Part shown: piece after piece, positions 6,374-58,633 of the stretch
Numbering within the stretch: the first letter of the stretch is position 1
How the letters are laid out: each line of letters starts with the position of its first letter
NCBI GenBank assembly: GCA_021818905.1
Contig: JAKASS010000001.1
Location: forward strand, 15,648 to 79,647
Direction: 5' to 3'
DNA length: 64,000 nucleotides
Source of the DNA: Nanobdellota archaeon
Lineage (GTDB): Archaea > Nanobdellota > Nanobdellia > Parvarchaeales > Parvarchaeaceae
Made by a program: the position numbers and the translations under genes
The notes under the pieces: model-generated
Databases searched by the model: none
The model's input: only the letters and a program-made list of their open reading frames with translations
Told to the model about the DNA's origin: nothing

Positions 6374-6396
6374 AAGATTTTTGCCTCATCAATAAA

Positions 6397-6486
6397 GGGC
6401 CCACTGGGATTTGAACCCAGGTCAGATGGTTACTCCATCTGATGCATTCGAAGCCATCTATCCTATCCGGACTAGACTATGGGCCC
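6397..6486 (-). tRNA. tRNA-Arg(UCG) with a 17-nt intron at position 37/38
   Basis: Reverse complement folds as GGGCCCA / GTCT..GGAT / GATGG-CUUCGA[intron]A-CCATC / CTGGG TTCAAAT CCCAG / TGGGCCC. Central helix CTTC/GGAG plus TAA bulge fits the 3' half of a BHB. Confidence 0.75.
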
Positions 6487-6530
6487 TTCAATATTTCTTA
6501 TGAAGTTTTAGATATTTATCTGTCTCTTAT

Positions 6531-14584: not shown

Positions 14585-15550
14585 GGCTCTGTAGAAATCC
14601 TCTAAAGTAAGCACCTCTTTAATTATTATAGTAAATAAACAAAAAAGAGGTGCTTATGAATAAAAATGGGAGTCCTTACTATAAAAGATTTGCGTCCATC
14701 GTATTGGGCATAGCGAGAAGGGCGTTGTCGCCCTTCTCAAGCAGATTCTCGAAGAAGACGTACACGCAGCCGCAGCTTGCCGCGTGCATCTGCCTGATGA
14801 AACACGAGAGAAAGCCTTATCGGGACGTCGTAGACGAGCTGGAAGAGCTCAAGGGGTTGTTTGACTTCGATAAAGTCCCTCATTATACGACACTGCAGAA
14901 ATTCTTCAAACGGATACCGCTGCGAGTATGGGATGCGATGCTGTCCTTCGCGTTTAGACTGTTCGGGATAAGAAGAATGGACGCCGCCATAGACTCCACT
15001 GGATACGAAGAGCGAAACGCTTCCTATCACTACCTGTGGAGAATAGGAGAAGAACTGCGTAGAAAGGTGTTTACCAAGCATTCCATCGTCGTAGACCCGA
15101 AGACGGAAGCGATAGCCGTTTCCTCCTCTAACCGAAGGTATGAAAGCGACAATAAGACCTTCAGACCGCTCATGAAGAAAGCCGCCGAGATAGTAAAGAT
15201 CGATAAGATACTGGCTGATAAAGGATACGATTCGGAGAGAAACCACAGGTTTTCGAGGGAGAGACTTCACGCAGAATCGATCATTCCTGCAAGGAATGAA
15301 GGCGTTCCGATATGGAAGACCAGGGGGAGATGGAGGAAGCTGATGAAAGCATCTTTTCCACTCGACGAGTACCATAAACGAAGCATCGTGGAGACTGTCA
15401 ACTCCGTGGAGAAGAGGAAGTTCGGCTCCACCCTAGGCAGCAAACTGCATTTGAACAAGCTGAAGGAGGTGAAGGTGATCGATGTGGTCTACGACGTCCG
15501 GCGATTCATACAGCTTGCTTATATTATTATCATAGGATTTCTACAGAGCC
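14585..15550 (+). mobile_element. 966-bp IS4/IS5-superfamily insertion sequence, intact ends
   Basis: Perfect 17-bp terminal inverted repeats GGCTCTGTAGAAATCCT (14585..14601 / 15534..15550). Flanked by the 9-bp direct repeat ATCCTCTTA (14576..14584 and 15551..15559). Confidence 0.9.
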
Positions 15551-15573
15551 ATCCTCTTATAAAACTTTATTAG
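14650..15573 (+). CDS. DDE transposase (IS4/IS5 superfamily)
   Basis: DSTG, ADKGYDSE and a Y-x2-R-x3-E-x6-K signature (YHKRSIVETVNSVEK). The ORF reads through the right TIR and stops in flanking DNA. Confidence 0.85.
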   Translation: MLMNKNGSPYYKRFASIVLGIARRALSPFSSRFSKKTYTQPQLAACICLMKHERKPYRDVVDELEELKGLFDFDKVPHYTTLQKFFKRIPLRVWDAMLSFAFRLFGIRRMDAAIDSTGYEERNASYHYLWRIGEELRRKVFTKHSIVVDPKTEAIAVSSSNRRYESDNKTFRPLMKKAAEIVKIDKILADKGYDSERNHRFSRERLHAESIIPARNEGVPIWKTRGRWRKLMKASFPLDEYHKRSIVETVNSVEKRKFGSTLGSKLHLNKLKEVKVIDVVYDVRRFIQLAYIIIIGFLQSHPLIKLY

Positions 15574-16401: not shown

Positions 16402-16497
16402 TGGCCCGGAAGGGGATCGAACCCTCGACCTCCGCTTGTCTTAGTTATTAGAGCAGGCTCATATAAGAGCGGCGCTCCGCCATTAAGCTACCGGGCC
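16402..16497 (-). tRNA. tRNA-Ile(UAU) with a 24-nt intron at 37/38
   Basis: Reverse complement: GGCCCGG TA GCTT-AATGGCG-GAGC G CCGCT CUUAUA[24 nt]A AGCGG AGGTC GAGGG TTCGATC CCCTT CCGGGCC A. U33 and A37 present. Central helix CTTA/TAAG with ACA bulge. Confidence 0.7.
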
Positions 16498-28594: not shown

Positions 28595-29068
28595 TTATGT
28601 GCTTGCTGTTCCTGTTACTGTACCCGGTGTCACGAAAGTACCACTAGTTGTGGTATATGTGACCGTGACGCTTGCACTGTAGCGAGCGCCGGCTGTAGCG
28701 CAGTCACCGTGAGTACCCCAGTTTAACGTCACTGAACCACCGCTTATGGCTACTCCAGTAGTTGGAGCGAGCGACGTCTCATTACCGTTGCTGTGCAGTC
28801 CAGTTATACCTGTCGAAGTCGTTACGTTCGCAAAATCAACTGTAACCGGCGCTCCGGCATCGTTACCTAGCTGGACTACTAATCCACTTGGGCCACAAGA
28901 TTGCGACAATGTTACGAATGGAGCAAACCCGGTCGCTGTCGGACCTACGCTGCTCGATGGGCTAAAGATTCCCAGCGAAAACAGGACAGCAGCTACGATT
29001 ACTATGATTAATATGGCCCAACCATATGTCATCATGTATTCCAAAGCCGACTGTGCTTTTGCTTTCAT
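28595..29068 (-). CDS. archaeal type IV pilin-like protein (class III signal peptide)
   Basis: MKAKA|QSALEYMMTYGWAILIIVIVAAVLF: Q at +1 and E at +5 after the G/A, then a hydrophobic helix. T/S/G-rich beta-type C-domain. Confidence 0.8.
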   Translation of the reverse strand: MKAKAQSALEYMMTYGWAILIIVIVAAVLFSLGIFSPSSSVGPTATGFAPFVTLSQSCGPSGLVVQLGNDAGAPVTVDFANVTTSTGITGLHSNGNETSLAPTTGVAISGGSVTLNWGTHGDCATAGARYSASVTVTYTTTSGTFVTPGTVTGTAST

Positions 29069-29142: not shown

Positions 29143-29835
29143 CTAAGTCTTAGAAAACGGGAGCGAAACGTGTATTGCGCTATTCAGGTTTTCCTGCGCA
29201 TAGAACTGGTAGGTCCCGGTAGGCAATGCTTCTATTTTTGAGAGACTGCTATAGTTAAAGCCTTTCCCGGATTCGTTATCGCTAAGAAGAGTCGCGATGC
29301 CATTTGCATATACAAGGTATAAGCTGACTTTCCCAGAAAATCCGCCGCCATATATCGTCAAAGGATAAGCACTGTTGTTCAGGATAAGGGGTTCTGAGTA
29401 ATCCCCATACAGGTACGCAAGTTCCAGCGTGCTATTTTCGTTTTGGTACGCTGCAAGGTTGGAAAGCCCGAAAGTCTCGTTTGCCGTTGCCCTGGTATCT
29501 GCGCCGCAAGATACCACGTTCGTATTGGCGACCAAGGCGGACACGGGCTTCCCATCGGTACCGACTAACTCTATCACGACTATGCCATTTGATACGCTTA
29601 TGTTGTAGGACGCCTGCTTTGTGTTGTTAAGCAGAGGGATATACTGTATCGAGGAAAAGCCATTGGAAGAAGAGACCGTATTTATGCCTAATGCTATCTG
29701 GTTGCATACGCTGCTCATAGTTACCGCGCTGGAGTTCGTGTTTAAGAAACTTGAGAAGAAAATCACAAGGAAAGCGACTATTATTAATATAAAACTAACG
29801 TCTATAACTAATTCTATCGAGAATTGTCCACGCAT
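29143..29835 (-). CDS. type IV pilin-like protein (class III signal peptide)
   Basis: MRG|QFSIELVIDVSFILIIVAFLVIFF, Q+1/E+5. Confidence 0.7.
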   Translation of the reverse strand: MRGQFSIELVIDVSFILIIVAFLVIFFSSFLNTNSSAVTMSSVCNQIALGINTVSSSNGFSSIQYIPLLNNTKQASYNISVSNGIVVIELVGTDGKPVSALVANTNVVSCGADTRATANETFGLSNLAAYQNENSTLELAYLYGDYSEPLILNNSAYPLTIYGGGFSGKVSLYLVYANGIATLLSDNESGKGFNYSSLSKIEALPTGTYQFYAQENLNSAIHVSLPFSKT

Positions 29836-37417: not shown

Positions 37418-37918
37418 ATGGCTAAGGGACAAGGTACGCTCGAACTGCTACTCGGCTACAGCATAGCTTTCATAATAATCGCTGCGACTTTAGCTATACT
37501 CTTCATATTTTACCCGAATATCTTCGCTACCGCGTCGTCTAGCACTTATTCCGGATTCGCTGGCTTGGTAGTGGCGGGACAGGGGTATTGCAACTCTGGG
37601 TGCAATGCCACGGGATTCTATTATATAAGATTCCAGAATCTCCTAAGTGAAAATATAAACGTGACTAGGATAACCTTTTTAAGTCCTGGCATCGATCAGA
37701 ACTTTTCAGATTGTTACAGTTCGATAGAAAATAGGACGGTGATAAAGAATTCAGCCCTGCCTGACCTATACATACCAAACTTAGGCTATGCCGAATGTAA
37801 TTTTACCATGCTATTGTCGTCACCTTATTCTGCCTCGGTCGATATTTATTACGTTCCTTCGAACGATAGTTATTTAATAAGCGAACCGATAGAAATAGCG
37901 GGGTCTGTCAGCGGATAA
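37418..37918 (+). CDS. type IV pilin-like protein (class III signal peptide)
   Basis: MAKG|QGTLELLLGYSIAFIIIAATLAILF, Q+1/E+5. Confidence 0.7.
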   Translation: MAKGQGTLELLLGYSIAFIIIAATLAILFIFYPNIFATASSSTYSGFAGLVVAGQGYCNSGCNATGFYYIRFQNLLSENINVTRITFLSPGIDQNFSDCYSSIENRTVIKNSALPDLYIPNLGYAECNFTMLLSSPYSASVDIYYVPSNDSYLISEPIEIAGSVSG

Positions 37919-38383: not shown

Positions 38384-38445
38384 GCTACATTTTACATTTC
38401 TCTGCTAAAATCAAAACTTAAATTATACGAGAATCAACTATACTC

Positions 38446-38955
38446 ATGACTGGAAACACCGAGGAATTCATATGGTACGAAGTGCTTTTCGCCCTCATAG
38501 TCGCTCTTGTAGTATTCTTCATATTTTACCAGAATTTCTCGGAAGTGTTCCCTATAGGCTGCAATAATAACAACTTAGTAGAAAACCAATTCTCTCAGGC
38601 ATTGTCCGGTACCCCAAATAGAGAGGAAGGCACGCCGCTTTTCAGATGCTACCTTACTAACGCGTGCTATGATCAGGCTACTGCAAATGTGACCTGCATA
38701 ACTAATTGGTGCGCATACGATTATTGCATAGACGGTAAGTGTTCAAGCGCTTTCCAAACCTGTGTACAAAGTCCTACGACGAGCGTGCTTCAAAACTGTA
38801 AAGTGCTTAATCCGTCAAATACCGCGGCCCTAGAAAACTGTGATCAAAGCACGATAATCGCTGACAATTCAACAGATATACAAAATTGTGACACGAGCAT
38901 ACCGACGTGTATAACCGGGGACGGCCCATCATGCTCCTCCTGTGTAGGCCAATAA
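38446..38955 (+). CDS. membrane-anchored Cys-rich extracellular protein
   Basis: N-terminal TM, then 17 Cys (by hand count) in about 130 aa (CYLTNACYDQATANVTCITNWCAYDYCIDGKC...). Confidence 0.6.
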   Translation: MTGNTEEFIWYEVLFALIVALVVFFIFYQNFSEVFPIGCNNNNLVENQFSQALSGTPNREEGTPLFRCYLTNACYDQATANVTCITNWCAYDYCIDGKCSSAFQTCVQSPTTSVLQNCKVLNPSNTAALENCDQSTIIADNSTDIQNCDTSIPTCITGDGPSCSSCVGQ

Positions 38956-38956
38956 T

Positions 38957-39115
38957 ATGGATAAGAAAGGAAGTGTAGAGTGGAGGATAATATGGATGAT
39001 TATAGTGATAGCCACCGCAATAGTCGCGATATTGATAGTATTGATTTTATATTACGCAAGTTCTAGCAGCGGTTCACCATTTACTTACTTTTCTGGATTG
39101 TTTGGTGGCCTTTAA
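38957..39115 (+). CDS. 52-aa KKG-helix mini-pilin-like protein (below ORF-track cutoff)
   Basis: MDKKG|SVEWRIIWMIIVIATAIVAILIVLILYYASSSSGSPFTYFSGLFGGL*. Starts 1 nt after the upstream stop. TAATG overlap with the next gene. Confidence 0.55.
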   Translation: MDKKGSVEWRIIWMIIVIATAIVAILIVLILYYASSSSGSPFTYFSGLFGGL

Positions 39116-40086
39116 TGGTAGAACAAGGCGTACTTCTTGTCCTTGTATCGCTGATTATAATAGTCATAGGCGGCGTCATACTTTTCGTCTTTAGTATCTC
39201 TTTTGCAACATCTATAGGCGCCACTGACTTCGGCGCTAAATGCTATTTCTCTTTCGTAGAATACAACGTCGTAGACTCGTTTTTGTATCCGGTCTCTTTT
39301 ATATCTTCCGCATTGGTAGGCAAGTCTCTAATAAGCGACCCGATCGCGGCTTCGCAGGTACAGGGAGCATGTACTCAAAATTCGAATGTAAATGCGCAGG
39401 ATACGTCCACTCTCGCCGAACAGATTTATACAAAAGCCGCTTCGTGTTTCAATCTTTTTCAGGGGTCTAATGCGGGTGAAGGAGCAGATATTATATATAG
39501 CGGATTAAACCAGTTGTTTGAATGTTACGCCGGTACGATACTTAACAGTGAGACTCCTGGCAGTGTTACGACTTACAATGAGCTTATAAATTATATAAAT
39601 CAAAACTACCCGAACAATGGAAATCCGCTGCAGATAGTATTCATAACCAATGGAACGGACGGCCTCGCAAATTATACGAACCCTAATGCGCCGGTAGCCA
39701 ATGGTTCTACTTATGTGATATATTATTTCGGTTATCCCAGTACTTTTTCCTTTAGCGCTTCCAAAATCACATTGAACGGGGTCTCCGGTACGGACTGCAC
39801 CCTTAACTTTAACACGCAGTGTGATTATGTCTCGCAGTTCAACGAGCCAGATATCGGTTCTGCGATATGCAATATCGATAATCCCACGGTATACAAGAAA
39901 CTAGGTTCCATAGACAATCCCGTGAGTTCGCTAAGCACGCCGAGCACGCTTTCATATGACCCAAAGGACAACGTTATAGGCGCATGTGAGGATTATGTAA
40001 TTGCTTTCTGTGGCAGATTACTTAATACCATGGTATTAAGCCAGAATAGGGTGTTTGTCTGTATAACAAACAGTGCGCTCGGTTGA
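39115..40086 (+). CDS. membrane-anchored Cys/Asn-rich extracellular protein (paralogue of 40122..41618)
   Basis: N-terminal TM. Shared blocks CFNLFQGSNAGEGADIIYSG and C-terminal NRVFVC. Confidence 0.6.
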   Translation: MVEQGVLLVLVSLIIIVIGGVILFVFSISFATSIGATDFGAKCYFSFVEYNVVDSFLYPVSFISSALVGKSLISDPIAASQVQGACTQNSNVNAQDTSTLAEQIYTKAASCFNLFQGSNAGEGADIIYSGLNQLFECYAGTILNSETPGSVTTYNELINYINQNYPNNGNPLQIVFITNGTDGLANYTNPNAPVANGSTYVIYYFGYPSTFSFSASKITLNGVSGTDCTLNFNTQCDYVSQFNEPDIGSAICNIDNPTVYKKLGSIDNPVSSLSTPSTLSYDPKDNVIGACEDYVIAFCGRLLNTMVLSQNRVFVCITNSALG

Positions 40087-40121
40087 ACCATTATTTATAT
40101 TAAAGACAGTTTAAAATCTAT

Positions 40122-41618
40122 ATGGCTGAGACCGGTGGCGAGAATATTGTATTCCTAATACTCTTCGTCATATTCATATTCGTTATAGTACTTGTTTTTG
40201 CCTATTTCCTTCTTTTTGGTTTCGGATTTACTAATGCGACTTCGTGTTACGGCAGCTCCCAAGTCACAAATTTCTTTTATAACGACCTTTGCATAACCAA
40301 GTTCTTCTGCATAGCTACGACGCTAAATGCAATTGGCATTGGGCCGCCATCGATCGGTTGCACGCCCGCTACACAAAGTTATACGTCTAGTTCTACTACA
40401 GGTCAACTTTTTGCGGGTATAACTGACGCGCTTGGAAATTGTTGGTACCAGTATGGGGCTAATTCCGGCTTAGACGTATTGTATAACGGGCCAGGACTTT
40501 GTAGCATTGTCGGAGTTTCGTTTAACAACCAAAAAAACCTTACTTTTTATAATCTTACGCAATATCTTAAAAGCGCTGCATTCTCAAAACAGATAAGCTG
40601 TCTAAATCATACGTCTGTGCAATCGTGCGCCGATCCTCTAACTTCCTTTAATCCTAATGGATTTAGCTGCGATACCGCCTCGCCGAGCGAGTGTGAGGCT
40701 TACTCAACCGATTATTTTTCATGTGAGAGCCAGCAGGGTTATATTCCTACGTACAGCGGATATGTCCTTCGAAACATATTTCTCAATGATTCCACAAAGT
40801 ACAATATAACAACGGCCACTACTGCTGCAAATAATCTTTCTTCGTATCTTTGCGATGTTTCGCAGGGCTGCTACTTTAATAAGGCTACGCTTAGCTGCAC
40901 TAATGATACTGGCCAGTCGAATGGCTGCAGTCAGGTTTTCACCAATTTCTGTGCGGAGACATCGTATGGCTATGACAATTGCACCGCCCAATACGATGCG
41001 AATACGGGCGATTACGAAGCGCCAGTAGGCTGCACCCTTGTAGAGCCTGTAAATAACGACTCGACCGTTAATGTCTCTTATTTTGATTACCTTGCGCCCG
41101 GTGTAAACCTTATATACAACTACAAAAATAAGACCAGCGGTAAAACTGAATCGGTCGGCCCATATTCAAATGTGAGTATAAACGACGCAGAATTATACCT
41201 AGTCTATCTTAATAGCTTTTCAAATAGTGCGCTTCCACCAAACACCATCTCAATGCCACCAGAATGCGTACCGCAGACTTGGCTTAACAATTATCCGACT
41301 TCAGGGATAGAATATCAATGTACCGAAGCATTAGCGGTTTTCGGTTCGGCTACGACTGGTCTGGCTTTATCTGGCGGCCCGAGCATAGTTACTTTGGGTG
41401 GTCTAGCGGCGACTGGATATCTTTATGGCGCATGCCAGAGGAATAACCTTTGCAACCAGTATATAGATACTACCGCTACAAATGCTGCCTGGACGGCGAT
41501 ATACACGACAAGCGGGTTACAGGGGTGTATGGACTCTCTTTATGCCGGCTTACAAGAACTAGGGGGAGCTAACTTTTTAGGGAGGAATCAGATTTACGTA
41601 TGCGCAGTCGCGGCTTAA
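40122..41618 (+). CDS. membrane-anchored Cys/Asn-rich extracellular protein (paralogue of 39115..40086)
   Basis: N-terminal TM, more than 30 Cys, many sequons. Blocks CWYQYGANSGLDVLYNG and C-terminal RNQIYVC. Confidence 0.6.
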   Translation: MAETGGENIVFLILFVIFIFVIVLVFAYFLLFGFGFTNATSCYGSSQVTNFFYNDLCITKFFCIATTLNAIGIGPPSIGCTPATQSYTSSSTTGQLFAGITDALGNCWYQYGANSGLDVLYNGPGLCSIVGVSFNNQKNLTFYNLTQYLKSAAFSKQISCLNHTSVQSCADPLTSFNPNGFSCDTASPSECEAYSTDYFSCESQQGYIPTYSGYVLRNIFLNDSTKYNITTATTAANNLSSYLCDVSQGCYFNKATLSCTNDTGQSNGCSQVFTNFCAETSYGYDNCTAQYDANTGDYEAPVGCTLVEPVNNDSTVNVSYFDYLAPGVNLIYNYKNKTSGKTESVGPYSNVSINDAELYLVYLNSFSNSALPPNTISMPPECVPQTWLNNYPTSGIEYQCTEALAVFGSATTGLALSGGPSIVTLGGLAATGYLYGACQRNNLCNQYIDTTATNAAWTAIYTTSGLQGCMDSLYAGLQELGGANFLGRNQIYVCAVAA

Positions 41619-42064
41619 ACAAAAAGGGCAGTACCTCAGTAGAGAAGGTAGTGGTAATAATAATACTAGTGGCCTTCGTAGTGATAGCTTTCGTAATCTT
41701 AAGCAACGTTTTCCATTTTTCACTTCTTAGCCTTGGCAAAAGCGTGCCAACGCTTACCAGCCAGCCAGCCGATTGCGGCTTGACTATAATCAATCAGTTT
41801 AACACCAGCCAATCATGCATATACACGCTATCCGTATCGGATGGCAGCCCAGGGCTTACTTATACCCTATATAACAACGTAAGCGGCAAAATACAAAGCT
41901 ACGTCGCGGGGGCGAGCACGATAGAATGGAATGCTACGCTGACGAGGGGGCCAACGCAAAGATATTACTTGTATGTTTGCAACACGAGCGGTTCAAATGT
42001 ATCCATAGATGGGTCATTTTATTCTGCGGGCGGATCTGCAGATGTCCTTCTCCCATGCGGATAA
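41600..42064 (+). CDS. prepilin-like protein of the NKKG class
   Basis: MRSRGLNKKG|STSVEKVVVIIILVAFVVIAFVIL (E at +5), beta-rich C-domain. 19-nt overlap with the upstream gene. Confidence 0.55.
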   Translation: MRSRGLNKKGSTSVEKVVVIIILVAFVVIAFVILSNVFHFSLLSLGKSVPTLTSQPADCGLTIINQFNTSQSCIYTLSVSDGSPGLTYTLYNNVSGKIQSYVAGASTIEWNATLTRGPTQRYYLYVCNTSGSNVSIDGSFYSAGGSADVLLPCG

Positions 42065-42065
42065 G

Positions 42066-43595
42066 CTAAACGAAAGGGTTTAGAGTGCCATCATTTTTAA
42101 GGGTCTTAGGATTCTCTTTTATATTTTTTATAAGCTTTTTCATCTTGCTTTCTTTTCTTTTAGAGACCCAGTAATACCCCTCGTCATTAGTCCCTTCAGT
42201 TATAAGTATGAATATTTTGCCCGCATTAAATCTTCCTACCCGCCCTCTTCTTTGTATAGATCTTATACCGCTTGGGATAGTTTCGTAAAAGACCGCTAGA
42301 TCCACACCCTTTATCGACATGCCTTCCTCGCTTACGCTTGTAGAGACAAGTACGTTGTAAACTCCTGCTTCAAAGTCTTTTATTATATTAACCTGCTCCT
42401 TCTGCGAAAGGCCGCCTTTGCCTTGCCCGATGAACTTAACCGGCCTTATGCCTTTGACACGGCTTACCGAATCGTAAATTACGTCTACTGTGTCCCTATA
42501 CTGCGTGAAGACTATCGCCTTCTGATCTGTGGAAAAACCTCCAGAAAATATCTTGTTTATCTCCTCAAGCTTTGGGTGCTCAAGCCCTTCATCCAGTAAC
42601 TTCTTTGATTTTTCGTACATCCATTTTATTTCAACGGTTTTTACTAGTTCTTTGTCGGTTTTTGACGTGCCTTCCTTGATCATCTTTTCAAGAAACCTGT
42701 TGAATGCTCCTACGCTTTGCGTAGAGATTAGATTGAGTGCATGGTATAATTTCAAAAGCTTTGAAGTGATTATTATGCCTCTTATGGTATAGAAATTTCG
42801 TTTCCCAGAAAACATGCGTGCCTGCAGGCTTTTCTGCAGCATGAGTATCGTCCTTCTGTTTATCCTGTTCGGTGACGCATCCTTGAGAAGGCCAACGTTC
42901 TGAAGGGCAGCGACTTGTTCCTGTATGAATATCTTGAGATAAGAGATTATTTCCAGTATTTCATTTGGCAATTTTAATCTTATCTCCTCGACTGTTTTAG
43001 TTTTTACGTAGGGGGCTACGTCTGGATCGTCTTCTCCTCTTATTTCTACGTTAGAAATCCCGAGATTCCTGCAGATTAGACTTATCTTTTCCTGCTCCGA
43101 AGCCGGAGAAGCCGTCAACCCCAGAATCAAGGGGTGGGCAGATTTTAGCATGTATTCTTTGGCTATTTTTACGTAAGCATAATTCCCGACTGTGTGGTGC
43201 GCTTCGTCTACTATAAGCAAGCTGAAATCCGAAAAATTTATTATGCCGCGCTCTATGTCGTTCTCTACCGTTTGTGGGGTTGAGAAAGTCAGCTGTGAAC
43301 TTTCGTATACATTTTGCCTGTCGCCTTTTTTGGTTTCTCCGCTCGTCATGCCGAGCGAAACATCCATAAGACCGGAGAAAGTCTTGTAATGCTGGTTTAC
43401 AAGTGGTTTCGTAGGCGCCAAAAATAACGTCTTTGAACCCTTATATTTGCTCAGTCTGTAATCCACTACAAGTACGCTTATTACCGTCTTTCCCAAACCT
43501 GTAGGAAGCACGACGAGAGTATTGGAATCCTTTGCGGTTTCGAAGATGTTTTTCTGGTACTCGCGCTCCTCTATTTTTCCTTTTCTGATAAACAT
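42066..43595 (-). CDS. hef: Hef/FANCM-like SF2 helicase (helicase domains only)
   Basis: REYQ, LPTGLGKT, VDEAHH, TASP, ETIPSGIRSIQRRGRVGR. No ERCC4 nuclease domain in the 509-aa product. Confidence 0.8.
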   Translation of the reverse strand: MFIRKGKIEEREYQKNIFETAKDSNTLVVLPTGLGKTVISVLVVDYRLSKYKGSKTLFLAPTKPLVNQHYKTFSGLMDVSLGMTSGETKKGDRQNVYESSQLTFSTPQTVENDIERGIINFSDFSLLIVDEAHHTVGNYAYVKIAKEYMLKSAHPLILGLTASPASEQEKISLICRNLGISNVEIRGEDDPDVAPYVKTKTVEEIRLKLPNEILEIISYLKIFIQEQVAALQNVGLLKDASPNRINRRTILMLQKSLQARMFSGKRNFYTIRGIIITSKLLKLYHALNLISTQSVGAFNRFLEKMIKEGTSKTDKELVKTVEIKWMYEKSKKLLDEGLEHPKLEEINKIFSGGFSTDQKAIVFTQYRDTVDVIYDSVSRVKGIRPVKFIGQGKGGLSQKEQVNIIKDFEAGVYNVLVSTSVSEEGMSIKGVDLAVFYETIPSGIRSIQRRGRVGRFNAGKIFILITEGTNDEGYYWVSKRKESKMKKLIKNIKENPKTLKNDGTLNPFV

Positions 43596-44164
43596 CAGAC
43601 ACCTATAGCTTTTCCGCTCTTTATAAGAATATCGGCCACATCTCTATCTATTTCTACAACGTTCGGAAACGAGAAAGGCCCGTAGGTCTTATTGTTCTTC
43701 CACACGAACCGAGGGACGTCGGCTATAATCTTTATGACGACCCTATTTGCATTGTCTTCGGATTCGACTTTTTGCATCTCTTTTGGAGCGACTTCTTTCA
43801 CTTCCCTTATGATTTTGCTTTTATGTCCATTGACAAGCTTCAGCATATTATCGAATAATATCAGTTCTTCCGACGTAAGGTTATTTCTTGCCTGATCTAT
43901 GTTGGTCCCTTGTATGGTCATATTCGCTATCTTTCCCATCCTTGCGGTTATTATCTGGTCTAAGGTGTTTATCGCGTTCTTTATCTGTGTAGATATTTCT
44001 TCAGCCCTCTTTAGGTCATCCATTTTTTTTGCTTCTTCCAAAGACTTTTTATTGATCGCTATGTATTCTTTCATCTCTTCTAGGGTCTCATTAGTCAATT
44101 TTGTAAGCGTCCTATCTTCTTGTTCCTGTCTCCTTATGCGAATGAACTCGCTGTAAGTTATCAT
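43595..44164 (-). CDS. GINS subunit (Gins51-like)
   Basis: Helical A-domain with ...ITARMGKI... and B-domain VIKIIADVPRFV..NKTYGPFSFPNVVEIDRDVADILIKSGKA. Confidence 0.65.
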   Translation of the reverse strand: MITYSEFIRIRRQEQEDRTLTKLTNETLEEMKEYIAINKKSLEEAKKMDDLKRAEEISTQIKNAINTLDQIITARMGKIANMTIQGTNIDQARNNLTSEELILFDNMLKLVNGHKSKIIREVKEVAPKEMQKVESEDNANRVVIKIIADVPRFVWKNNKTYGPFSFPNVVEIDRDVADILIKSGKAIGV

Positions 44165-44212
44165 ATCTAATTATTATCCTGTTCACTGAATATAAGTTTA
44201 TTCTGGTTTGTC

Positions 44213-44401
44213 TCAGCTCGTACTATTCAATCCGCCGGTGACCATATGCGCGAAGCCACCGAAAAAGTTCGATATATCCGTCACTATCGTACCCGGCCCC
44301 ACTAGAAGTATGTAAACCACTACTACCGTTATGCCTAACGCTATCGCTATGATATAATAAAGCGTGGCTTCAGTCACTCCCTTCTTATTAAGTCTCAGCA
44401 T
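44213..44401 (-). CDS. 62-aa NKKG-helix mini-pilin-like protein
   Basis: MLRLNKKG|VTEATLYYIIAIALGITVVVVYILLV... Confidence 0.55.
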   Translation of the reverse strand: MLRLNKKGVTEATLYYIIAIALGITVVVVYILLVGPGTIVTDISNFFGGFAHMVTGGLNSTS

Positions 44402-44405
44402 ATCG

Positions 44406-44549
44406 TTATCCGAACGGGTTTGGAATGGGCGGGAATAGTTTTGCCGCCCCTCCGAAGACTATAAGGTAGAATATCACTATGACTATCCCTATTACGATTA
44501 TTATTATAAGGAGAAGCACGTAATCTGTCACGCCTTTTTTATTAAGCAT
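44406..44549 (-). CDS. 47-aa NKKG-helix mini-pilin-like protein (below ORF-track cutoff)
   Basis: Hand translation: MLNKKG|VTDYVLLLIIIIVIGIVIVIFYLIVFGGAAKLFPPIPNPFG*. Confidence 0.5.
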   Translation of the reverse strand: MLNKKGVTDYVLLLIIIIVIGIVIVIFYLIVFGGAAKLFPPIPNPFG

Positions 44550-44712
44550 ATTTACCGCCGTTAATACTTGCAGCAGAGAAAAAAGAACTAAAAAGATTAG
44601 ATATCTTGTACGGAGAAAAGAATTCCAAGAATATTATTACAAGCAAAATCGCTATTATAAGAAGGATTATGTAAAGAAACGTGCTACCTTGTATAGATGC
44701 TTTCTTATCCAT
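44542..44712 (-). CDS. 56-aa KKA-helix mini-pilin-like protein
   Basis: Internal ATG of track ORF 44542..44772: MDKKA|SIQGSTFLYIILLIIAILLVIIFLEFF... The start overlaps the upstream stop (ATGGATAA). Confidence 0.5.
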   Translation of the reverse strand: MDKKASIQGSTFLYIILLIIAILLVIIFLEFFSPYKISNLFSSFFSAASINGGKYA

Positions 44713-44878
44713 TGCCAAAAAGCCAGCTGAAGGAAAGCGCTTTGAATATCGAGTTCCCCAGACTTGCACCACCGCTGCTGAAATAAAGAGCTATGACTAC
44801 TCCGACAAGAAGCACGATTATCGCTATTACTATAGCTATTATTTCTGTTATCGGCATCTCTCCCTTTTTGTTTACCAT
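44705..44878 (-). CDS. 57-aa NKKG-helix mini-pilin-like protein (below ORF-track cutoff)
   Basis: Hand translation: MVNKKG|EMPITEIIAIVIAIIVLLVGVVIALYFSSGGASLGNSIFKALSFSWLFGNG*. Starts 3 nt after the 571-aa ORF stop. Confidence 0.5.
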   Translation of the reverse strand: MVNKKGEMPITEIIAIVIAIIVLLVGVVIALYFSSGGASLGNSIFKALSFSWLFGNG

Positions 44879-44881
44879 GAT

Positions 44882-46597
44882 CTAAAATAAAGGATTGTCA
44901 AAATTCGAAAGCGGACTCAATAATCTTTTCCTTCTCTTGAATTCCTCATAAATCAAGGAAGCGTCTTGGTTTGCTCTGAAAAGGCCTACCGCTATCGCGT
45001 CTTTCGTTCCAAGCCCCTTATACCTCCTGTGGCTTACTTCTATTTCGTATAGATCTGGGTCAAACGCCCTTTTTTCGCCGGTGCCTACTGCAAGTGACAA
45101 TGATTTGTTTATGCCGACGAGATCGTCCTTGAAAGACTGGTATATGTCGAAAAGTGCATAGTTAGAAGCCGGCTTCGCCTTGACATCTTTCTTTTCCGCC
45201 TCGGCTATATATCTATCCAGATCTTTCTTTATCACGTTCAATGAAGATACCGAGACCTGGTCCAGACTCTGAAAAACCGTTTTGTTTACGTATGTTTCTA
45301 GTGCTTTTTTGAAAAGGTACCATTCATCCAGTGTAAAGCAGAAAGGCTTTAATTTTATCCCAAGTGTTCCTGTGTACTGCGTTCTGTCCTGAGGTACCCC
45401 CTTAGGGAAGAACTGCTTCTCTGTAAAACTGAACGAAGTTTCTACCGCTGCTACGACCTTTGGACCGTGCTTCTTTAAACTTGTATACAAAAACGACCTG
45501 TTGCCTTCCCTAGGCCCTTCTGTAAGCAGCTTACCCAAAGGCGTTACTACGGAAGGCAGTTCTGGTCCTTTTACACCAAATGCTCTTTTGTACTCTACCT
45601 CGTACTCACGCCTATACATCGGTTTTGCCGCCATTAATTCTACCGAAAATTCGGCTGTCTCCATTATGTCGGGTCTTTTAGATGCATTAAGGTAGTCATT
45701 AGCGTTTGTAATCCCCTTGAGATTTATCCTGTTAAGTATGCTCAAAGATTCGGCAGCCCAGTTTTTATACATCTCATACGCGGCGGCCTGGCTCTTCAGG
45801 TATTGGAGAAGCATGTCCCTTCTGTTGCTAAGGTCTCCCTTGCTTATCTTTTTCCATTCTTCGTATTCTAAAAATCTGTTCCTAAGTATGTTCTTGTACT
45901 GCTCATTCTTTTGCATGGACTCTATGTCCTTCAGGCTATTGATAGGATAGAATACCGCCACTAGGTCTATAAAGCCGGCACCACCCTGTCCTTGCGTCGG
46001 TGCCCTTGACAATGCACTTAGACTTGCGCCGCCTTTTCTTGCATCAACGTTATCGATAAAAATCCTTTTTAACGCGAGGTCGGCTGCGCGCTTCTTTTGA
46101 GGATCGCTCGATTCTGCCAGTTTATAAAAAGAGTAGTTTCTATCAAGCTCTTTGAGCTCGTAAGTTATCGAGATTATTGATTTTACGACGGTGTTAACGC
46201 TGCCCAAAAGCTGCATTGCTCTATCTTCCAGCGCCTTTCTCTTCTCAAAAGCCATAGTCATAAGGTTAGAAAGCGCGGCTGGATCGACTGATTCCGCGGT
46301 TTTTAATTTGTCATTATACCCAAGCGCCTTTAGCTCCTGATTTATCATTTTGTATTCGGATTGGAACTGGTATGCGCCTTCTACGTCTAGCGAAAGAAAA
46401 AATCCTTCTTGGTTCCCAAGCAGACCTATATCGGGCCGGTTTATCCTCTTAGCGTATCTTAACTCTGACAGCTCCCCTCGGTAGCGACTATTCAAGCCTG
46501 CCGCCCTCAGTTTTAGCTCTTCTATCCAGTTTTTTGCCTCTCTAGGGCTTGATGCGGCTATTATTTTCTGGTATCTCCCGATCTCAGCCAAGTTCAT
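44882..46597 (-). CDS. 571-aa soluble protein of unknown function
   Basis: Long uninterrupted ORF with no TM, no P-loop and no motif I recognise. First gene of a tightly coupled five-gene string. Confidence 0.6.
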   Translation of the reverse strand: MNLAEIGRYQKIIAASSPREAKNWIEELKLRAAGLNSRYRGELSELRYAKRINRPDIGLLGNQEGFFLSLDVEGAYQFQSEYKMINQELKALGYNDKLKTAESVDPAALSNLMTMAFEKRKALEDRAMQLLGSVNTVVKSIISITYELKELDRNYSFYKLAESSDPQKKRAADLALKRIFIDNVDARKGGASLSALSRAPTQGQGGAGFIDLVAVFYPINSLKDIESMQKNEQYKNILRNRFLEYEEWKKISKGDLSNRRDMLLQYLKSQAAAYEMYKNWAAESLSILNRINLKGITNANDYLNASKRPDIMETAEFSVELMAAKPMYRREYEVEYKRAFGVKGPELPSVVTPLGKLLTEGPREGNRSFLYTSLKKHGPKVVAAVETSFSFTEKQFFPKGVPQDRTQYTGTLGIKLKPFCFTLDEWYLFKKALETYVNKTVFQSLDQVSVSSLNVIKKDLDRYIAEAEKKDVKAKPASNYALFDIYQSFKDDLVGINKSLSLAVGTGEKRAFDPDLYEIEVSHRRYKGLGTKDAIAVGLFRANQDASLIYEEFKRRKRLLSPLSNFDNPLF

Positions 46598-57934: not shown

Positions 57935-58633
57935 ATGCACATGAATAAAAAGGCGCAATTTATTACTGAATATATAATTGTAATTGGTATCGCACTCAGC
58001 ATAATAGCTGTATTCCTGGTCTATGTACTAGTTTATTATTCTGGCTATTCAAATTCCTCTAACTCTAACCAGATATCGACTATAACAAATTCTATTGTAC
58101 AGGAAGCCAATTATGTATTCTCTGAAGGAGTTGGCTCAAAGACTTCTTTTACACTGGGTTTCCCCGATCTACAGGTAATAAACTCATTTTTCTGTGGAGA
58201 TTATATAAAAGTCACTTCCTCACAATATTCTTCGGTGAGCCGGGCAGACGAGGAGCTTGAAGGACTGCTGCCTCTGAAACAGGGAACTTACGTTATGTAT
58301 GCAAGGTACAACCAGACCGGTATAGTACAGATAGGACTAGATTCGGGTGTTTCTTACATAAATTATACTTATTCGTATGACTCGAGCAAAGACCTTTTAT
58401 TTTACAATCTTACCTTCTTCGATAGCCAGTATCTTATCTCTAGCGGCGTAGCCGGTATAGTCCCTTATAATATAACCGTCTTTTCTGTGAACGGCGTTTA
58501 TCTAAACAGCAGCACCTCATTGAGCGTGGACGATTTTGCATACGGGGAATTGACTCTAAAGCCGACACCGTCAGAAGCTATAATAGATATTTTTGTAAAT
58601 GGTGCCGTTGCGCCCTCCTGCTTTTATCCATAA
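57935..58633 (+). CDS. type IV pilin-like protein (class III signal peptide)
   Basis: MHMNKKA|QFITEYIIVIGIALSIIAVFLVYVLV, Q+1/E+5. Confidence 0.7.
   Translation: MHMNKKAQFITEYIIVIGIALSIIAVFLVYVLVYYSGYSNSSNSNQISTITNSIVQEANYVFSEGVGSKTSFTLGFPDLQVINSFFCGDYIKVTSSQYSSVSRADEELEGLLPLKQGTYVMYARYNQTGIVQIGLDSGVSYINYTYSYDSSKDLLFYNLTFFDSQYLISSGVAGIVPYNITVFSVNGVYLNSSTSLSVDDFAYGELTLKPTPSEAIIDIFVNGAVAPSCFYP

Follow-up and report, generated by a model that had tools for sequence, protein, structure and literature searches.

Tad/Flp pili are composed of a Flp pilin together with the pseudopilins TadE/TadF. In the bindosome assembly system (Bas) of Sulfolobus, the small pilin-like proteins BasABC are accompanied by the ATPase BasE, the membrane protein BasF and class III sugar-binding proteins, and the minor-pilin or tip complexes FimU–PilVWX–PilY1 and GspHIJK are thought to prime assembly and to sit at the filament tip. 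The ARMAN/Parvarchaeales are ultra-small, host-dependent archaea; physical links between ARMAN cells and Thermoplasmatales have been imaged, and to our knowledge no gene has been tied to these links. The type IV pili of archaea have been catalogued (Makarova, Koonin & Albers 2016, PMC4858521), and DPANN pilus loci hold unrecognisable 'dark-matter' pilins (Makarova et al. 2019, PMC6393860); studies of Micrarchaeota pili (PMC5498576) deal with another phylum and are not used as evidence here. The subject of this analysis is a block of five plus-strand genes (38446-42064) within 64 kb of DNA, hereafter the window, from a Parvarchaeales (ARMAN-4/5-type) archaeon. Together with one gene upstream and four small genes downstream, these five genes probably encode the subunits from which Parvarchaeales build a type IV filament specific to their lineage. 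We read the block as pilin-like subunits because its distant homologues sit directly behind a T2SSE ATPase and a TadC/T2SSF-like protein.

The block begins with c169 (38446-38955; 169 amino acids), which has an N-terminal anchor and a Cys-rich ectodomain with 14 Cys, 12 of them conserved. It is followed by s52 (38957-39115), a 52-residue pilin-like peptide that starts MDKKG|SVEWR (in leader-bearing proteins the bar marks the predicted cleavage point), has one transmembrane helix and ends in the conserved tail SPF.YF..LGG. Next come m323 (39115-40086; 323 amino acids), with an N-terminal helix (MVEQG|VLLV), 10 invariant Cys and 3 conserved sequons, and b498 (40122-41618; 498 amino acids), with an N-terminal helix (MAETGGE|N), 24 conserved Cys and 6 conserved sequon positions. 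The last member, p154 (41600-42064), is a 154-residue prepilin-like protein (NKKG|STSVE) with Glu at +5 and 5 sequons. Upstream lies pil166 (37418-37918, plus strand), known from the open reading frame (ORF) list and from synteny, a 166-residue prepilin-like protein that starts MAKG|QGTLE and has 6 sequons. Listing the ORFs reproduced exactly the coordinates of the five genes in the original prediction, and their junctions are as described there: a 1-nt gap, a TAATG overlap, a 35-nt gap and a 19-nt overlap. The translations also bear out the KKG motif of s52 and p154, the Glu at +5 of p154 and the Q+1/E+5 start of pil166, with rpl15e between that gene and the block, and a hydropathy scan finds a single N-terminal hydrophobic segment in each block protein and none other above threshold.

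The evidence that ties the block to a secretion-type machinery comes from its most distant relatives. When 1.84 billion representative proteins were searched exhaustively with a profile, only 30 representative clusters related to the 498-residue family were recovered, about a dozen of which are full-length distant homologues (E 1e-15 to 1e-37). At one such locus, L034, an operon on one strand with overlapping gene ends encodes a T2SSE ATPase (743 amino acids), a 682-residue polytopic membrane protein, proteins of 136, 44, 282 and 490 amino acids and then small proteins; the ATPase matches PF00437 at 72 bits (cut-off 24.9) and carries the Walker A motif GTRGSGKT. The same layout recurs at L038, which comes from another sample, as a 749-residue protein with a precomputed PF00437/T2SSE assignment followed by proteins of 688, 144, 47, 323 and 460 amino acids. 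Identity between L034 and L038 is 56 % for the ATPase and 43 % for the platform protein. At L033 and L032, the tail of the same membrane protein precedes the cassette.

Profiles built from the Parvarchaeales families recognize several of the individual slots in these operons (E-values on neighbour genes are against a small database). The c169 profile matches the gene right after the TadC-like gene at L032, L033 and L034 (E 1e-10 to 1e-13), and the m323 profile matches the gene in the same slot at L033 (E 1.7e-9) and weakly at L032 (E 0.012); the 282-residue slot gene of L034 is not recognized by it (E 0.77). The slot of s52 is held by an ORF of 34–47 amino acids. After the b498 homologue, the first small gene is matched by the k57 profile (E 6e-7 at L034, and also at L033 and L032) and the second by the k62 profile (E 1e-9 at L033, 6e-8 at L032 and 6e-6 at L034), k57 and k62 being two of the four small downstream genes of the window. 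Homologues of p154 are present in Parvarchaeales and at L035, and none was seen at the L032–L034 or L038 loci. Upstream of the ATPase (L034 1674-3251 and L038 537-2268) are three consecutive genes for proteins of ~170–200 amino acids and one for a familyless protein of ~690 amino acids; the ~170–200-residue proteins of L034 look membrane-embedded, one with a weak Yip1 match, and these genes may be further parts of the ancestral system.

The N termini point in the same direction. A leader ending in K/R-G/A is found in all relatives of pil166 (24/24), s52 (25/25) and k57 (21/21), in nearly all of k47 (22/23) and p154 (23/27), in 17 of 22 k56 proteins and in 7 of 23 k62 proteins. Across these seven leader-bearing families, in the species that have the motif, the predicted cleavage point always comes directly after G/A, itself preceded by K/R; in most cases there is an acidic residue between +1 and +6, which the k56 family mostly lacks. 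In the pil166 family, Gln stands at +1 in 24/24 and Glu at +5 or at +2/+5; Glu is found at +3 in 22 of 25 s52 relatives and at +5 in 15 of 27 p154 relatives, and the k47 family has an acidic residue at +2 or +3. The Q+1/E+5 of pil166 and the E+5 of p154 are features that we take to resemble those of EppA-type substrates. Distant b498 homologues begin MKLNKKG|E, MKKKG|M or MKRKA|L, all class III-type leaders, and the gene in the m323 slot of L038, a putative m323 homologue by its position, size and C-terminal motif, begins VKKG|VSLIV. In the Parvarchaeales, the Gly of the former cleavage site is kept, invariant in the b498 family (G6-E7) and present in 12/14 m323 proteins. These leaders in distant homologues suggest that the three large proteins are themselves pilin-type subunits.

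Within the Parvarchaeales the cassette is universal. Homologues of the 498-, 323- and 154-residue proteins fall into 14–18 clusters each, all from metagenome-assembled genomes named 'Candidatus Parvarchaeota' or 'Nanoarchaeota'. A scan of one genome per GTDB species found 27 loci, ARMAN-4 and ARMAN-5 among them, and in all 27 the order is ParA, a 56-residue zinc-finger gene, pil166, L15e, c169, s52, m323, b498 and p154, as established by ORF and BLAST comparison as far as each contig reaches. Beyond p154, the helicase, GINS, the four small genes and a 571-residue gene lie on the opposite strand. The cassette is conserved in relatives, as the original prediction had proposed to examine: with the same order in 27 species-level genomes, its genes are not lineage-confined orphans. 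Median identity to the window is 52 % for c169, 63 % for s52, 39 % for m323, 47 % for b498 and 37 % for p154, compared with 54 % for the neighbouring ParA and 59 % for L15e. The cassette genes are core, single-copy genes that evolve at ordinary rates, about as slowly as the housekeeping genes around them, a pace that fits conserved machinery better than a fast-evolving adhesin for host recognition.

The four small genes form a second cluster on the minus strand of the window. They encode pilin-like peptides of 57 amino acids (k57, 44705-44878; MVNKKG|EMPITE, with the tail FSFSWLFG), 56 (k56, 44542-44712; MDKKA|SIQ, starting at an internal ATG), 47 (k47, 44406-44549; MLNKKG|VTDY) and 62 (k62, 44213-44401; LNKKG|VTEAT). 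The genes are tightly packed and fall into four orthologous families, and each product combines an (M)xNKKG/A leader with a single hydrophobic helix; hhalign relates k56 to k47 and k62 at 97 %, a score dominated by the hydrophobic helix. At L001 and L026 the k genes stand directly after p154 on the same strand, as confirmed by BLAST. At L035, where gene order was judged by gene sizes and by the GINS and helicase domains, small genes of 60, 49 and 57 amino acids occupy the positions after p154, the 60-residue gene being in the k57 slot. The block k57–k56–k47–k62–GINS–helicase (window 42066-44878) is opposite in orientation to its counterparts at L001/L026 (10022-12817) and L035 (11895-14610); its breakpoints fall exactly between p154 and the helicase and between k57 and the 571-residue gene, and it is inverted in most Parvarchaeales. 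The order at L001/L026 and L035 indicates that the window arrangement arose by inversion of this block, and the two clusters are thus one split unit, with the four small genes at 44213-44878 belonging to the c169–p154 set.

The helicase inside the inverted block is Hef-like. Its stop codon (minus strand) and the convergent stop of p154 (plus strand) are one base apart (42064-42066), leaving no room for terminators. At the other end of the block, u571 (44882-46597, minus strand) encodes a 571-residue soluble protein of no known family, conserved in 24 Parvarchaeales loci and located on the opposite strand from the k genes at L001. It lies 3 nt upstream of k57, the first KKG gene, and is therefore probably co-transcribed with the four small genes in the window; its membership of the set is uncertain. 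The sequence of u571 has no Pfam or PDB match, its family profile has no PDB match, and the Pfam hits of 12 homologues are noise. A link of u571 to the ancestral system was rejected, as the distant ATPase-linked operons hold no homologue.

The block had been described as one coupled unit. Its junctions are as stated; a single transcription unit is less likely, as conserved TATA-like boxes precede both c169 and b498. The first (TTAAATTATA, 38418-38427, plus strand) lies 19–28 nt upstream of the c169 ATG and is a candidate promoter for a leaderless transcript, and a TTTAAAT/CTTAAAT motif occurs at a matching distance before the 169-residue gene in nearly all 24 relatives. The second (TTTATATT, 40094-40101, plus strand) lies in the 35-nt spacer, 21–28 nt upstream of the b498 ATG, and a TTATTTAT-type motif is kept at the same distance in most relatives. 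Overall, conserved boxes are found 19–32 nt upstream of the ATGs of pil166, c169 and b498, and we read them as candidate promoters because of the known position of archaeal TATA boxes. The boxes suggest leaderless transcripts, and those before c169 and b498 make an internal promoter probable and at least two transcription units inside the proposed operon likely; translational coupling within 169–52–323 and within 498–154 is plausible.

The large proteins are unusually rich in cysteine. c169 is the most Cys-rich ORF of the window (8.3 %), b498 is second (24 Cys, 4.8 %) and the window median is 1.3 %; the 17 Cys earlier counted by hand in c169 are in fact 14. The 498, 323 and 169 families have 24, 10 and 12 columns, respectively, in which Cys is at least 90 % conserved; these counts are all even, as is expected for disulfides. 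Sequons number 13 in b498, 6 in pil166, 5 in p154, 3 in m323 and 3 in c169. The description of these proteins as full of sequons is apt for b498, p154 and pil166 and has to be dropped for m323 and c169, which have no excess over shuffled composition. Conservation of at least 80 % is reached at six sequon positions in the 498 family, three in the 323 family and two in the 169 family; of these last two, one falls at the end of the membrane helix, which leaves one in the ectodomain. The even conserved Cys columns and the conserved sequon positions argue for an extracellular location of the large proteins. The core of the original prediction, disulfide-rich, probably N-glycosylated, N-terminally anchored surface proteins with pilin-like partners, holds, and its pilin link is strengthened. 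Residues ~400–436 of b498 (window 41320-41430) form a Gly/Ala-rich, moderately hydrophobic stretch (ALAVFGSATTGLALSGGPSIVTLGGLAATGYLYGA) that is found family-wide, is poorly conserved in sequence and has a predicted local distance difference test score (pLDDT) below 35; this segment may be flexible or interact with a membrane.

The 323- and 498-residue proteins had been called clear paralogues, which cannot be upheld: BLASTP between them is not significant (E 0.12), and hhalign with profiles of close relatives (Parvarchaeales) gives 4.7 %, and at most 10.7 % for subregions. Full-length paralogy is rejected on these grounds. When distant members are added to the profiles, hhalign aligns 66 columns at 86.5 % (E 4.5e-6; b498 91-156 with m323 95-168). 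The CWYQYG/CFNLFQG likeness from which the claim had started falls in this same region and is seen only with the broadened profiles. At L032 the two proteins also end alike (...CCEDKIIVC and ...CSDKILIC), giving a C-terminal C-x-D-K-I-(I/L)-(V/I)-C motif. b498 and m323 therefore appear to share a module of ~65 residues and a C-terminal strand motif, not their full length. Homology of c169, p154 and pil166 to the large families was not accepted, since hhalign aligned the N-terminal helix only (3–54 %). Three proteins of 240–280 amino acids from other metagenomes (P0069, P0070 and P0072; L037), which start ...KG|E(L/I)TTQQIV, share the N-terminal domain of the 498 family including a C-W-W-Q-F-G-E motif (hhalign 97.8 %). 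This domain thus also exists alone behind a class III leader.

These data lead us to the following model. Each protein would be inserted through its one N-terminal hydrophobic helix, with the N terminus inside and the C-terminal part outside. The M-x-KK-G/A leaders of pil166, s52, p154, k57, k56, k47 and some k62 proteins would be trimmed after the G/A by a prepilin peptidase of the FlaK/PibD type, and a FlaI/VirB11-type ATPase with a TadC-like platform would pull the helices out of the membrane and assemble them as the core of the filament. The genes for ATPase and platform would be located elsewhere in the Parvarchaeales genome, and are immediately upstream of the cassette in the distant relatives. 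In this scheme the very short peptides (~40–55 residues when mature) would be Flp-like shaft or core subunits, and c169, m323 and b498 low-copy minor subunits, most likely of a priming or tip complex, with ectodomains locked by 6, 5 and 12 putative disulfides, respectively, and bearing conserved N-glycosylation sequons. Most probably these large subunits would serve to contact either a partner cell or the envelope of the cell itself. The best-supported reading is a set for a type IV filament with small peptides the size of Flp, two pilins of medium length and three large minor subunits that are glycosylated and locked by disulfides. That the three Cys-rich glycoproteins are minor or tip subunits is probable. 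Directly observed are the genes, how they are conserved, their motifs and, in distant relatives, the association with ATPase and TadC; cleavage, filament assembly, tip location and adhesion, including contact with the host cell by the filament, are inferred.

Searches for known families returned little. At E ≤ 1, the 169-, 323- and 154-residue proteins have no match in Pfam or NCBIfam, and the only other matches are non-significant: DUF7248 to b498 (E 0.22) and three chance transmembrane-helix matches to s52 (E 0.06–0.24). The small KKG ORFs likewise have no significant match in Pfam or NCBIfam. The small proteins do not match Pfam Flp (PF04964); their first acidic residue is at +1, +2, +3 or +6, and none has EY at +5/+6. 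PDB sequence searches with the 498 and 323 profiles gave nothing. The statement that no extracellular domain could be recognized thus stands after Pfam, NCBIfam, PDB sequence and Foldseek searches, and neither the sequence nor the Foldseek searches indicate an S-layer or solute-binding family. The low-confidence AlphaFold2 model of m323 opens with an N-terminal helix of 54 residues, after which come further helices and a beta-sheet; the small peptides lack the length for a head domain. Among the large and membrane ORFs of the window scanned for pilus machinery, only housekeeping genes, SecD/F and a transposase were found; the SecD/F genes lie ~5 kb upstream of the cassette. For ARMAN-4, ARMAN-5 and the other acid-mine Parvarchaeales, Table S6 of Rao et al. 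2023 (PMC10134863) records one FlaK (K07991, an entry that covers all of the latter), one ATPase of the VirB11/FlaI type (arCOG01818) and at least one TadC.

Several observations weigh against a type IV filament. The ten proteins match no pilin family in Pfam or NCBIfam, a weak negative given that the canonical pilins of the window are also unmatched, and the AlphaFold2 models are of low confidence (mean pLDDT 56 for b498 and 57 for m323, from alignments of 18 and 14 sequences), with no pilin fold found by Foldseek in the PDB (best E 2.7). ATPase, TadC and peptidase genes are present neither in the 64-kb window nor within ±10 kb of any Parvarchaeales locus, so that the machinery link in Parvarchaeales would rest on the distant relatives and on the literature table, and the T2SSF match itself is below the Pfam cut-off (E 3.5e-4 for the L034 membrane protein and E 0.0088 for its L033 relative). 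The N termini of c169, m323 and b498 in Parvarchaeales are acidic (MDVEQF, MEQG and MAETAGE) and have no K/R, and these proteins may accordingly not be peptidase substrates; c169 has no G/A site, even in distant relatives. The k62 protein is leaderless in 16/23 species, where the ORF begins M-E-x-x-W-F-Y and an upstream leader is impossible, the LNKKG leader being found in the window and in six other species. Finally, the appendages seen by cryo-electron tomography are mostly host-derived, with no obvious ARMAN pili (PMC4110969).

In the same tomographic work (PMC4110969), ARMAN cells have an inner and an outer membrane but lack an S-layer, 5–8-nm periplasmic densities are attached to the inner membrane, and pilus-like links join the cells to Thermoplasmatales. 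With an envelope of this kind a long adhesive pilus, a short envelope assembly or envelope proteins that have drifted from a pilus are each possible. We consider it rather unlikely that the type IV machinery builds a bindosome- or pseudopilus-like assembly, placing the large proteins and small peptides in or across the ~30-nm ARMAN wall and serving binding, uptake or secretion rather than long-range adhesion. Such an assembly would suit the double membranes, the periplasmic densities and the missing S-layer, and as fixed machinery it would be expected to be single-copy, core and slow to evolve, as the cassette is (c169 52 % and b498 47 %, against 54 % for ParA and 59 % for L15e). The combination of ATPase, platform, tiny pilin-like genes and larger class III proteins would also resemble the Bas system of Sulfolobus; the ectodomains have no similarity to solute-binding proteins or to a known binding fold. 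A short and a long filament are indistinguishable at the level of sequence.

Improbable, in our estimate, is that the large proteins have left the pilus system and are now envelope glycoproteins, structural proteins of the wall or periplasm, inserted by Sec or YidC through an uncleaved signal anchor, with the KKG peptides being functionally unrelated membrane proteins. Several features noted above would fit: the cassette sits away from the genes for ATPase and platform, in informational surroundings (L15e, GINS and helicase) and with SecD/F ~5 kb upstream, m323 and b498 no longer have the leader K/R, a cleavage motif is missing from c169 and k62 is often leaderless. The leader Gly, however, is still invariant in b498 and kept in 12/14 m323 proteins, and the large genes are strictly linked and translationally coupled to s52 and p154, which have full class III motifs. 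The k genes also still follow p154 at L001/L026, with small genes that match in size and position at L035, and the peptidase, ATPase and TadC are retained in the genomes (PMC10134863 table). There is next to no chance that the small ORFs and the motifs are accidents of an AT-rich genome and the cassette a set of functionless lineage-specific orphans. The missing database families and the low structure confidence could be read in this way, but all of the ORFs, those of 47–62 amino acids included, are conserved in length, order and motif across 21–27 species at 36–63 % median identity, their Cys and sequon columns are conserved and they have homologues in distant operons, data that refute such a reading. 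At the other extreme, the filament could be one in which m323, b498, c169 and most k62 proteins are made already 'mature' with an acidic N terminus in place of a positively charged leader that can be cleaved, with a glycoprotein tip of 23 disulfides, and which spans the double-layered envelope and forms the pilus- or synapse-like links of the cell to its Thermoplasmatales hosts. This bold version is quite improbable; if true, the filament would represent a branch of pilin biogenesis that needs no peptidase and would explain in molecular terms how ARMAN cells contact their hosts.

The window encodes further proteins with canonical class III signals, at 28595-29068 (minus strand; MKAKA|QSALEYMMTYGWAIL), 29143-29835 (minus strand; MRG|QFSIELV) and 57935-58633 (plus strand; MHMNKKA|QFITEYIIV). 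They carry canonical archaeal pilin motifs (KA|QSALEY, RG|QFSIE and KA|QFITEY, respectively), have no Pfam pilin family match and may include a major pilin served by the same machinery. A DDE transposase ORF (14650-15573, plus strand; PF01609, E 1.5e-10) is the sole mobile-element gene among the ORFs scanned, in a scan that was not exhaustive. Rfam places two tRNA genes of 91–96 nt at 6395-6487 and 16402-16497, both on the minus strand; of the two, ARAGORN misses one and reports the other as tRNA-??? with an anticodon of 4 bases, and both genes probably contain archaeal introns.

As a probable subunit set for a type IV filament, the genes described here define a candidate apparatus of about ten genes that is universal in Parvarchaeales and tied by gene context to filament machinery. 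Four uncharacterized families (the 169-, 323-, 498- and 154-residue types) and a family of tiny pilin-like peptides are thereby defined; they have not been described before, are unusually Cys-rich, partly leaderless and fixed among informational genes. The ten-gene set offers a natural case of pilin-like proteins whose charged leader has been lost, and the families are concrete targets for metaproteomics, for localization by antibodies or cryo-electron tomography and for structural work.

Compared with known systems, the set combines features of several. Like the minor-pilin and tip complexes, it is a conserved, ordered group of different low-copy pilin-like proteins, large ones included, that are encoded together; unlike them, it has no sequence or detectable fold similarity to known members, and its tip location is purely inferential. 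Like the Bas system, it would join a type IV-like ATPase and platform to tiny pilin-like proteins and to larger surface proteins that share the N-terminal signal, whereas the large proteins here have no solute-binding similarity and the loci examined have no neighbouring ABC transporter genes. The likeness to bacterial Tad/Flp pili lies in the very short subunits, with a leader, one hydrophobic helix and a tail of 15–20 residues (s52, k57, k56, k47 and k62, with predicted mature lengths of 40–55 amino acids), and in the TadC-type platform. The resemblance to Flp pilins is in size only, as the G|XXXXEY signature is missing and there is no Pfam Flp match, and five distinct conserved small paralogues are found here in place of one major Flp. 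There is also a parallel with archaeal type IV pili, for example Methanococcus Epd, Sulfolobus Aap/Ups and Haloferax PilA, with which the set shares the operon logic of its distant relatives, the ATPase, the TadC-like platform, the proteins with K/R-G/A leaders and the FlaK-type peptidase reported in these genomes (PMC10134863). It differs from them in that its ten proteins match no Pfam or NCBIfam pilin family, that its three large subunits have an unusually high Cys content (as many as 24 conserved residues) and, in Parvarchaeales, leaders stripped of all positive charge, and that the pilin block has become separated from the genes for ATPase and platform and has a fixed place among genes of the ribosome and of replication.

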